Source of the DNA: Adineta vaga
Lineage: Eukaryota > Animalia > Rotifera
Length of the DNA stretch: 64,000 bases
NCBI GenBank assembly: GCA_021613535.1
Contig: CP075495.1
Span: forward strand, 15,500,001-15,564,000
Direction: 5' to 3'
The notes below the pieces were generated by a model. It worked only from the letters and a program-made list of their open reading frames with translations. It was not told the origin of the DNA and searched no databases. This document shows positions 37,582 to 40,771 of the stretch, one piece after another. Both the position numbers and the translations under genes were made by a program. Position 1 is the first letter of the stretch. Each line of letters starts with the position of its first letter.

Positions 37582-38177
37582 ATGGGACAAATGTATGCAT
37601 ATTCCATCGTTCTATTGATTATGGCTGTCATTATAATGGCTGAAGGACGTCCATCAAATGAAAAGGATTTGTCTTATTTTAAGGAATTGACTCGACGATT
37701 TCATGATTCAAATGATCAATATATAAGAAATAATCAAGATAAAACTGAAATTCTTGCTGAACGACTTTATACTTTGTTAAAAAAACGTATTACATTGGGT
37801 AAGTTTCATTTATTTTCAGAATAAATTATTTATATAAGAGTTTATATGAATATATTCACATATTTTTCATTTGAATATCTCTCAGTTCAATAAATATATT
37901 TACTAAAGAGACTGATGATCGAAACTGAGATCTTTTTGGTTTCATTTTAGAGAACAGATCGGAAGAAAAGACAGGTACTGTCAAGTGGTTTAATGATGCG
38001 AAAGGTTTTGGTTTCATTGCTCAAGATGGTGGAGGTGAAGATCTGTTTGTACATCATAGTGCCATTAATATACATGGCTTCAAAACACTCAAGGAAGGTC
38101 AAAAAGTTCGATTTGAAGTGACGAGAGGCCCGAAGGGTCTACAGGCATCCAATGTCAGTTTAGCGGAAGATAACTAA
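37582..38177 (+). CDS. Prepro-protein: signal peptide + propeptide + bacterial-type cold-shock domain (copy 1)
   Basis: Exons 37582-37798 and 37951-38177 (phase-1 GT-AG intron) give ...[83 protein letters not shown]. The second exon is absent from the ORF track. Confidence 0.88.
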
Positions 38178-38469
38178 ACAGTACAATATGGTTTAAACAG
38201 AGACAAATATCATTCTTTTTCTTTATTTTTCATACTTTTTTTCTTATTTATAAAGAAAAAAGCCTCGCACTATAATAAACTCAAATACAAAAAAATATTG
38301 TCTCAAATGAAACCAATTGTTCTATTGTATTTTCTTCGATTCTTTCATACAACATTATAAAGACATTAGCAACTCTCGAACAATAATTTAATAAAAAAAA
38401 AAAGATATTAAATTTCTTTTTCAGATAAGATTTGAATCGATTCATTTTCAAAAGAAAAAAAAACTTATA

Positions 38470-38549
38470 GATGGAAATTATTTTGATATAACACATTCAT
38501 TTCAAATTGATTCATTAACATATCATGTCTTAGGTTTAAGAAAAGATCA
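38470..38549 (+). pseudogene. Truncated copy of the 5' end of the 41128-42759 gene (edge of a tandem duplication)
   Basis: atggaaattattttgatataacacattcatttcaaattgattca...catgtcttaggttta is nearly identical to 41131-41209. Confidence 0.85.
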
Positions 38550-40155
38550 AATCGATCTTACATAAAGAATATCCAGACAAAATAGGACACAGGAATATCT
38601 TGATGTTCAGATAGTAATTTTGATATTTTTGACACTTTTTTTCGAAAACTTCCGGCAGTAGAAGTTTCTGAACAGATATTTTATAAGATTGAGAACTCCA
38701 TGACACTTTATGTGATAGTGAAATACATATATAGTATATGATTTAGTCATCTCAAGAGGACTAGACGTCCATTCAAGTCTACATTTGACAGTTGTTAATC
38801 CTTCGTATGATGTTCAATTAAAATCATATGAGAAAACTAAAACTTTCTTGATTATACAGATCAATTTCAAAAAATATCTAATTCATCAGTCTTTCACTCG
38901 ACCATGTGCATAAAGGTACTAGATATTAGTAGAGAGAACTAGTCTCAGATTCGATGAGATTTGAGTTTAGATCAGGATGCAACTATATTTTCATTGTTCT
39001 TTAAAATAACAAATAAGACTTTTTTTGTAATTTTTAACAAAACATAAAAGATAGTTTCGTAAGATACAGTGGTACACTTTACCTAAGATTAGGTTCAATC
39101 TTCTGATTTAGTAGATAATATTACATTTTGCTGAAACAATAAAAAATCTAGATTTTTCACTTTTGGGACAACAAAAACTGATGCTCTTTGATCATTGTGA
39201 AAAAGTATTATCGGAAATCTCAGTCTTCTGCTAAACGCTAGCATGTTCCTTATTAAAGATAATACGAAAATTGCAAAGACGAATCTTATTGATCAATAGC
39301 AACCAAAAACTGTTACAGGACACTTTTTCAATAAGCTGCCCTGCTCTGAAGACACTCTATAGAATTTAAAAATCCACTTTTTTCTCGAGGTCTTTTAGGA
39401 GACTGAAGCTGGTGGGTAAAAAAATACTAGTCCTGTTCTAACCGGGCAGTTTCCAAATTTACTCAGCTGATCCGTTTACGTTCTAAGTATTTCGTCCTGC
39501 AAAACAGTCAAAACGAAAAATTTTTTTGCTCTTTAGGTCCTCGTAGAATGAAAGAACAACAAACTATGTGATTTAGAATACATTCATAGGAAATCAGCAA
39601 TTTCTTGACAATCATCTCTATCTTCGAATTCAAGTGAAATATTTATGAAATAATGCAATGTAGAAAACTTCATGGTGATTGGATCGTTCGTTTACAAGTT
39701 ATCGTGTAAATGAACAGTCGATCGGACAATGATTGATTCTAGAATGTTCTCATTCTTTCAGTGCACAATAGAATATAAAGGTCAAAAACAAGGTTGTGCG
39801 TTACTTTTTCTCTATTAGTTTACATAGAAGAAAAATGATTTATCCTTCATCTCTTCTTTTATCATCATATCCCTGTTCATACTTAAGATTGAAAAAATCT
39901 TTTATAAACGAAAAAAACAAGGTTATATATTGTTCGTTTTTTATATACCTCGAAGGAAGAATATGATTTCGATTTGAATCGAATTATACAGGATACATTT
40001 CGCTATTTGATCACAACCAGAAAAAACGTCTTATTAATGATTTTTATAGTTTTATAACAATGTATTACTATATGCTCGAATGCACAGCTGGTATAAAATC
40101 CAGTAAGTTTTATCATTCAATACGCATTCTATTACGTTCGCTCATCTACTAAATT

Positions 40156-40771
40156 ATGGGACAAATGTATGCATTATCCTTCATCGTATTGATCATGGCT
40201 CTCATTGTATTGGCTGAAAGACGATCTTCAAATGAAGATGACCTATCTTATGTGAAGAAATTGGCTCGACGATTTGATAATTCAAATGATCATTATATCG
40301 AAAATAATCTAAATTTACGACATATTAGTCATAATCAAGATGAAACTAAAGCTCTTGCTAAACAATTTTATTCTTTGCTGAAAAAACGCAGCACATTTGG
40401 TATGTTTCATTTATTTAGAAAATGACTTAGTTAAAAAGAGCTTATATAAATACATAGATTGTATTTAGATTTCAATTTCACAAATATACCTATTAGAAAG
40501 ATATTCTATAAAAAGATTGATCAGAATATCATATGACTTTATTTTTATTTTAGATTACAAAAGATCAACAATAACAGGTAGAGTCAAATGGTTTAATGAC
40601 GCGAAAGGCTTTGGTTTCATCAGTCAAGATAACGGAGGTGAAGATGTATTTGTACATTATACTGCTATTCAAATGAATGGCTTCAGATCACTTCAAGAAG
40701 GTCAAAGAGTTCAATTTGAAATCAAGAAAGGACCGAAAGGTCTACAGGCAACCAATGTTAGAGCCCTATAA
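40156..40771 (+). CDS. Prepro-protein: signal peptide + propeptide + KR site + bacterial-type cold-shock domain (copy 2)
   Basis: Exons 40156-40399 and 40554-40771 (phase-1 intron) give ...[83 protein letters not shown]1 (KGFGFI) and RNP2 (VFVHY) are intact. Confidence 0.9.

Follow-up and report, generated by a model that had tools for sequence, protein, structure and literature searches.

Two tandem genes of a bdelloid rotifer place a bacterial-type cold-shock domain behind a predicted signal peptide

Cold-shock domains are textbook intracellular RNA chaperones. Here we describe two tandem genes in a 64-kb stretch of DNA from the bdelloid rotifer Adineta vaga (assembly GCA_021613535.1, contig CP075495.1, positions 15,500,001 to 15,564,000; hereafter the window), in which a first exon encoding a predicted signal peptide and pro segment is spliced to a second exon encoding a cold-shock domain (CSD) of bacterial type. 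The genes, I4U23_010663 (copy 1) and I4U23_010664 (copy 2), both carry the annotation hypothetical protein and belong to a contig of 16.27 Mb in the A. vaga record; the window is AT-rich (30% GC) and its introns are short.

Aphid RlpA provides an example of such an arrangement: a bacterial domain gained by lateral transfer sits on a eukaryotic signal-peptide exon, with introns at the domain borders and exon shuffling as the proposed route (PMC2662799). The bacterial part of the aphid gene is the DPBB domain of a bacterial lipoprotein, together with cysteine-knot motifs (PMC2662799), whereas in the rotifer genes a cytosolic nucleic-acid chaperone would sit, redirected, behind a pro segment that is helical and dibasic. 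The fusion of a bacterial domain with a signal-peptide exon is not new in itself; a cold-shock domain so joined in an animal is the case for which we found no description. Human YB-1 is likewise an animal cold-shock domain protein that occurs outside cells, but it has no signal peptide and exits by a non-classical route (PMC2690452). The short, bacteria-like Es_CSP of a tardigrade, described as a nucleic-acid binder, differs in being sister to the Y-box clade and a proposed intracellular chaperone, with no signal peptide mentioned in the accessible text (PMC6652013). Nor do the accessible parts of the work on dinoflagellate CSPs, which are bacteria-like nucleic-acid binders of suggested bacterial origin, mention one (PMC11453091). 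Extracellular activity against bacteria has been reported for a cold-shock protein (Csp), the bacteriocin Thuricin BtCspB, although that protein is bacterial and acidic and the accessible text mentions no signal peptide (PMC5071883). Honeybee MRJP-3 is an animal secreted protein that binds RNA without sequence specificity, but it is unrelated to Csps and forms multivalent granules (PMC6509358).

Compared with the bacterial CspA family (PF00313), the rotifer domains share the five-strand barrel, reach up to 87% identity (among the best 80 of 594 matches) without an insertion or deletion, and keep RNP1 and RNP2 intact. They differ in forming the second exon of an intron-bearing animal gene, behind a predicted signal and pro segment. 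They are not stand-alone proteins of ~67 amino acids (aa) with a start codon of their own, as bacterial Csps are; among the same best 80 matches, 70 bacterial Csps have a Met no more than eight residues from the KWF motif. The likeness to classical prepro-peptides lies in the cleavable signal anatomy, assigned by rule in both copies and in 6/6 exon-1 relatives described below. The original prediction had known of no account of this architecture, and in the open-access literature we likewise found neither an animal Csp described as bearing a signal nor these locus tags; the accessible parts of 10.1101/2021.09.04.458992 and PMC13407396 contained no relevant mention.

Both copies are real, expressed two-exon genes in which exon 1 is spliced to the Csp exon. 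The structures and coordinates first proposed from the letters of the window were correct, with phase-1 GT-AG introns (Table 1). Splicing was read from contigs of four public runs aligned to positions 37300-41100 (by their records, two 'RNA?' and two '?'). The copy 1 intron was skipped exactly in contigs of two of the four runs (junction 37798/37951) and the copy 2 intron in those of all four (40399/40554). A single spliced contig spanned 37561-38202 of copy 1 with zero differences from the window. Contigs of three runs began upstream of the copy 2 Met1, and the Met1 codons of both copies lie inside spliced contigs. The exon-2 frame has no Met from the last upstream stop to the cold-shock domain, hence no start codon of its own; neither of the outcomes that had been named as contrary to the proposed structure, separate transcripts for the two exons or a Csp starting at its own ATG, applies. 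The NCBI protein UJR29451.1 is identical to the copy 1 product. Contamination and mis-splicing were ruled out by the 16.27 Mb A. vaga contig, by the presence of at least half of the stretch's words in 9 of 24 listed runs and by the exact GT-AG joints. Among the listed runs containing these words none is recorded as RNA, which is neutral either way.

Table 1. Features of the two genes and of the first tandem unit (window positions)
Feature	Position	Strand	Remarks
First tandem unit	37378..38548	+	partner 39952-41209, 72% identity; 3' end is a truncated 5' copy of the next gene
Copy 1 exons	37582-37798 / 37951-38177	+	joined open frame, 147 aa
Copy 1 signal peptide (predicted), aa 1-22	37582..37647	+	(-3,-1) sites after Ala20 or Gly22; 17-residue uncharged run; rule-based
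Copy 1 pro segment	37648..37798	+	two predicted amphipathic helices, KKR at end (codons 67-69, 37780-37788)
Copy 1 intron, 152 nt, GT-AG, phase 1	37799..37950	+	spliced out in contigs, 2/4 runs; GC 22%
Copy 1 exon 2: short linker, bacterial-type cold-shock domain (~37971-38159), stop	37951..38177	+	Pfam PF00313 E=9e-29
Copy 2 exons	40156-40399 / 40554-40771	+	joined open frame, 153 aa
Copy 2 signal peptide (predicted), aa 1-20	40156..40215	+	(-3,-1) site after Ala20; rule-based
Copy 2 pro segment	40216..40399	+	two amphipathic helices; KKR codons 76-78 (40381-40389)
Copy 2 intron, 154 nt, GT-AG, phase 1	40400..40553	+	spliced out in contigs, 4/4 runs
Copy 2 exon 2: KR (40559-40564), 68-aa Csp-like chain, stop	40554..40771	+	Pfam E=7e-32

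Exon 2 had been read as a CspA-like domain with intact RNP1 and RNP2, bacterial rather than Y-box or Lin28 in type, and both readings held. PF00313 matched with 99.6 (copy 1) and 109.6 bits (copy 2) against a cut-off of 27. Folding from the single sequence was poor (pLDDT 59.5), and an alignment-based model (AF2) was used instead; it gave a confident barrel (pLDDT ~90) preceded by three lower-confidence helices, and in Foldseek this five-strand barrel matched CspA and CspE at a root-mean-square deviation of 0.7-1.2 A. The W, F, F, F and H residues of the RNP1/RNP2 binding face are retained in both copies, in which the RNP1 Phe and the RNP2 Phe and His correspond by motif to F18, F31 and H33 of E. 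coli CspA. These three residues are reported to be essential to the chaperone activity of CspA, which opens hairpins without sequence specificity (PMC5397153). From the conserved residues we consider it likely that the rotifer product binds nucleic acids.

Against solved structures, copy 2 scored 97 bits with a bacterial Csp (3cam, no insertion or deletion), compared to 58-60 for Y-box proteins and 48-54 for Lin28. The loops of the animal proteins are longer, by four residues in Y-box proteins (65 of the query to 69) and by seven in Lin28 (62 to 69), and the animal-type RGG tail and CCHC fingers are absent from the rotifer proteins, which end with the cold-shock domain. A Y-box or Lin28 origin was rejected on these lower scores and missing animal insertions. 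An analogy drawn earlier with CspD proved weak: TIGR02381 gave 99.8 and 100.9 bits, under its cut-off of 115.4, and CspD identity was rejected. The CspE equivalog NF049933 gave 107.5 and 117.9, under a cut-off of 120, and neither copy reached any NCBIfam cut-off.

The bacterial comparison used the best 80 of 594 confirmed GTDB matches, which were led by records titled Myxococcota and one 'Proteobacteria' record; the top match is 87% identical to the copy 2 domain over 63 aa. In a tree of 68 columns, which like the later trees contained no eukaryotic CSDs (Y-box included), both copies fell in a starred clade (100/96) with 25/25 Myxococcota and 14/15 Acidobacteriota rows. A clade uniting copies 1 and 2 was not rejected (p=0.51). 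With another row set support was lower, and the top plasmid matches of copy 1 were from Ralstonia, at 77%; because of these two results, 'Myxococcota-like' denotes a Csp type, as read from such comparisons, and not a proven donor. A phage donor was unsupported, with a best identity of 67% among 91 phage records vs 87% in bacteria. Taken together, the bacterial affinity, the spliceosomal intron, the A. vaga contig and the exon-2 GC content at third codon positions (0.25-0.32) indicate that the Csp was likely acquired horizontally from bacteria and domesticated.

Exon 1 is, as judged from its relatives, a separate conserved module with signal-peptide anatomy. We searched its profile over 1.84 billion representative proteins, a set in which orthologues more than 50% identical to copy 2 are masked by their representative, and obtained eight matches: copy 2 itself and seven open reading frames (ORFs). 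One of these, P0244, was discarded as spurious, as it fell to 0 bits once the signal was removed. The other six were still homologous without the signal (23-42 bits vs at most 11 in 1000 shuffles each). Each has an uncharged run of 15-19 residues and, at residue 19, a (-3,-1) site, the features by which signal peptides were assigned here; R-S follows in five and P-S in one. No exon-1 relatives were found among longer proteins (66 candidates), in metagenome contigs or in viral contigs, and a protein atlas search with exon 1 gave no match at or above 0.9.

In the AF2 model of copy 1 the pro segment forms helices at residues 27-43 and 47-73, with hydrophobic moments of 0.74 and 0.64. A helix with the pattern S-x-x-x-x-L-x-x-x-F/L is common to the six relatives, and four also keep another amphipathic helix, with KR or basic residues at its end. 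The helices are conserved and slightly basic, and are not an acidic shield. A KR lies 5-6 residues from the exon end in both copies and in three of the four relatives that reach this point, the fourth being basic instead, so that KR occurs in 5/6 full-length exon-1 sequences; a single pro segment, when shuffled, would have KR at this offset with a probability of 0.013. The original prediction of a prepro exon with RR and KKR sites was borne out in its signal anatomy; the KR is conserved, the RR of helix 1 is not. Its further point, a KR placed directly before the domain, is right for copy 2, where KR-S immediately precedes the domain (STITG start), and for copy 2 only. Neither copy contains a Gly-Lys-Arg amidation signal, and Pfam returned no significant peptide family for exon 1.

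Four relatives continue past the exon end with K-F-H, K-F-R or K-S-H, and copy 1 read into its intron gives K-F-H. The relatives therefore look like the output of prokaryotic gene callers that ran through the same splice donor. They are presumably bdelloid. Exon 1 may be a pre-existing host prepro module that was shuffled onto the Csp. Of the other genes with the same exon 1 that had been proposed as a check, six relatives were found, one of them with a CspE-type Csp and none with a demonstrable non-Csp cargo. A subgroup of exon-1 sequences (P0242, P0245 and P0248-P0251) seems to stop before the second helix and KR, and may have another exon structure or cargo.

The relative with a Csp is P0246, a 253-aa frame on an ENA contig that contains exon 1, a low-complexity intron-like stretch and then a cold-shock domain. 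Its exon 1 is 34% identical to that of copy 1, and F-I-L closes the intron-like stretch, just as it does in the window copies. P0246 is also represented by its two halves, P0239 and P0247, each listed with a 10,990-nt contig. Since P0246 carries both exon 1 and a Csp, the architecture is not restricted to the tandem pair of the window. The Csp types differ: the window genes carry the Myxococcota type and P0246/P0247 the enterobacterial CspE type. The P0246 domain matched enterobacterial CspE, CspA and CspC best (76 bits vs 57 for 3cam; 60-62% identity to CspE). Seven diagnostic columns distinguish 23 Myxococcota Csps from 29 of gammaproteobacterial type, both sets picked as best matches; at these columns the P0246 domain has the gammaproteobacterial state at six and the Myxococcota state at none, and the window genes have the Myxococcota state at five (copy 1) and six (copy 2). 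Profile scores agreed, at 100 (gammaproteobacterial) vs 66.5 (Myxococcota) for P0247 and 115 vs 134-141 for the window copies. A maximum-likelihood tree (82 of 113 loci, after thinning and removal of duplicates) placed P0247, a long branch, apart from the window copies. A single clade of P0247 and the window copies was not rejected (p=0.21 in the approximately unbiased test, 24.5 log units worse; p=0.32 in another test). From these comparisons we favour two captures, or replacement in place, without regarding either as proven.

The exons of the two copies are ~80% and their introns 70% alike, and between the copies dN/dS is 0.45 in the cold-shock domain (below 1 at Fisher p=0.02) and 0.47 in the pro segment (p=0.14). 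All four runs also contained a variant of copy 2 (40037-40919) that departs from the window at 12 coding sites, by 9 replacement and 3 silent changes (one run covers just 8 of the 12 sites), and has a 15-nt deletion in the 3' untranslated region (UTR). Several of the changes agree with copy 1 or with the bacterial state. The variant is probably the other allele, and possibly reflects allele-biased expression or a third copy.

These results lead us to propose, tentatively and at a little under even chance, that each gene makes a secreted Csp, probably trimmed at KR, which frees a 68-78 aa binder of single-stranded RNA or DNA outside the cell, most likely directed at microbes in the gut or at the body surface. 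The signal peptide of exon 1 would take the product into the endoplasmic reticulum (ER), a step we consider likely because the signal anatomy is conserved. Removal of the signal would leave a helical pro segment of 47-58 aa ahead of KR, whose helices may serve in sorting, chaperoning or membrane binding. A cut after KR would then free a 78-aa chain from copy 1 (net charge -1) or a 68-aa chain from copy 2 (net +3, pI 9.7). The chemistry of this architecture is predictable. PC1/3 and PC2 cleave after KR (PMC9070308), and the conserved position of the site leads us to lean slightly towards convertase cleavage there. Once outside, the Csp face would bind single-stranded RNA or DNA without specificity, and its targets may be microbes or their nucleic acids.

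Bdelloids eat bacteria, and dae genes of eukaryotes are reportedly an analogue. The bacterial diet, the use of horizontally acquired genes in defence reported for bdelloids (PMC11258130), the cationic nature of two of the three domains, the frequent replacements and the bacteriocin report are the reasons for which we favour a microbe-directed role. Net charge is +3 in the copy 2 and P0246 domains, and between -2 and +2 in all of the best 80 of 594 bacterial matches. Thirteen of the 16 supplementary files of PMC11258130 gave no relevant match, the expression table lying outside those. Given secretion, this purpose falls just short of an even wager against all other extracellular uses together.

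Several observations weigh against the proposal. Convertases are thought to disfavour Ile or Val following KR, and one of these directly follows the conserved KR in 4/5 sequences, which weakens the cleavage step. The helix-1 RR is not conserved, being dibasic in one of six relatives. The copy 1 domain is not cationic (net -1). In the P0246 domain the RNP cores are kept, but the KWF motif lacks its Trp, and two further aromatics of the binding face are also gone. UJR29452.1, the NCBI model of copy 2, starts from Met14 and loses most of the signal. The excess of replacement over silent changes in the copy 2 variant (9 to 3) fits relaxed as well as diversifying selection. Finally, the BtCspB bacteriocin comes from a single study, with a narrow range and no established mechanism (PMC5071883).

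A close rival is that the Csp is secreted to handle the animal's own extracellular RNA in gut, body fluid or egg, melting or stabilising it for digestion, storage or transport much as MRJP-3 might. It draws on the same evidence for secretion and on the same binding face, on MRJP-3 as a precedent for a secreted, non-specific RNA binder (PMC6509358), and on the hairpin opening by CspA without sequence specificity (PMC5397153). The rotifer protein has one monovalent domain, however, whereas MRJP-3 is multivalent, and the many replacement changes between copies and alleles and the lost aromatics of P0246 also speak against it. We rate this reading as unlikely, though ahead of the others below.

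Less probable still is that the activity resides in the exon-1 helices, which would act as a peptide hormone or membrane-binding peptide, while the Csp serves as a stable passenger, a decoy or a mimic of bacteria and binds RNA only secondarily. Conservation of the pro segment in the six relatives once the signal is removed, a dN/dS there similar to that of the CSD, the different Csp types of A. vaga and P0246 and the eroded binding residues of the latter would all agree with it. Yet exon 1 shows neither an amidation signal nor a significant Pfam peptide family, the CSD is under purifying selection (p=0.02) with its binding face intact in both A. vaga copies, and an arbitrary cargo would not predict a Csp in both lineages.

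We regard as improbable a third possibility, that the protein is not, or not only, secreted, and that translation from Met14 or Met19 yields a cytosolic RNA chaperone for cold or desiccation, with the signal-bearing form minor. The NCBI model of copy 2 does start at Met14, in four of the six relatives the hydrophobic run has a Met close to its end, and both Met14 and Met19 are flanked by A at -3 and G at +4. Met1 has the same context, however, and lies inside spliced contigs of both copies, and the hydrophobic run and (-3,-1) site, needless for a cytosolic protein, are kept in 6/6 relatives. Least of all do we expect that the protein is exported uncut, with a signal anchor or the amphipathic helices tethering the Csp to a membrane or lipid particle, where it would trap nucleic acids at the surface: the unfavourable residue after KR in 4/5 sequences and exported-looking, apparently uncleaved CSD fusions among bacterial metagenome ORFs would suit it, but a conserved (-3,-1) site terminates the hydrophobic run, which is short, and copy 2 has KR-S right before its domain.

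Secretion of a microbe-directed Csp remains our preferred reading. If an animal exports a Csp of bacterial type by its secretory route, the binding of single-stranded nucleic acids must be of some use to it in the extracellular space, with a bearing on how bdelloids handle eaten bacteria, on extracellular RNA and possibly on the uptake of foreign DNA. If there were two donors, the same host exon would have received repeated domestications. More speculatively, and in our view rather doubtful as a whole, one bdelloid secretory prepro exon may have captured bacterial csp genes at least twice (the Myxococcota type and the gammaproteobacterial CspE type of P0246), or had them swapped in place, giving recurrently selected, convertase-released, secreted nucleic-acid-binding effectors. 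The genes are small and expressed and belong to a laboratory species, which makes secretion, cleavage and activity directly testable; N-glycosylation sequons, at Asn74 and Asn140 in copy 1 and none in copy 2, could serve as a reporter of ER entry.

Among 238 CSD proteins a signal-like start was seen in nine, one of which is copy 1; in four, an internal Met lies ahead of the domain, and the start may have been called wrongly. P0003 and P0043 were the clearest exported-looking CSD fusions. P0043 combines a signal peptide, a bulb lectin and a CSD 84% identical to the copy 1 domain, P0003 a lipoprotein-like signal and two CSDs, and P0002 a membrane protein and two CSDs; each is a bacterial-looking metagenome ORF from a single contig.

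Upstream of copy 2 (40037-40155), contigs of two runs begin 5' of a TATA-like motif at 40092. The leader in these contigs includes four upstream ATGs with short frames, two of which terminate shortly ahead of the main start. In run X12, a contig that derives from another place matched 33 nt over the copy 2 acceptor and KR codons (40538-40570) and then continued into unrelated letters, either by chance or as part of another gene with a similar junction and a different cargo.

At the start of their 3' UTRs the copies share an identical stretch of 52 nt (38177-38228 and 40780-40831), which may represent a conserved regulatory element or result from patchy gene conversion. It gave no support for a structured RNA, with no stable hairpin (z 0.24 and 1.41). 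The duplicated units are separated by a 1.4-kb spacer (38549-39951), for which we found no second match within the window and no convincing terminal repeats. At the end of the first unit, 38457-38548 repeats in truncated form the 5' end of the gene that comes next (41118-41209), and at 92% its identity is above that of the rest of the duplication.

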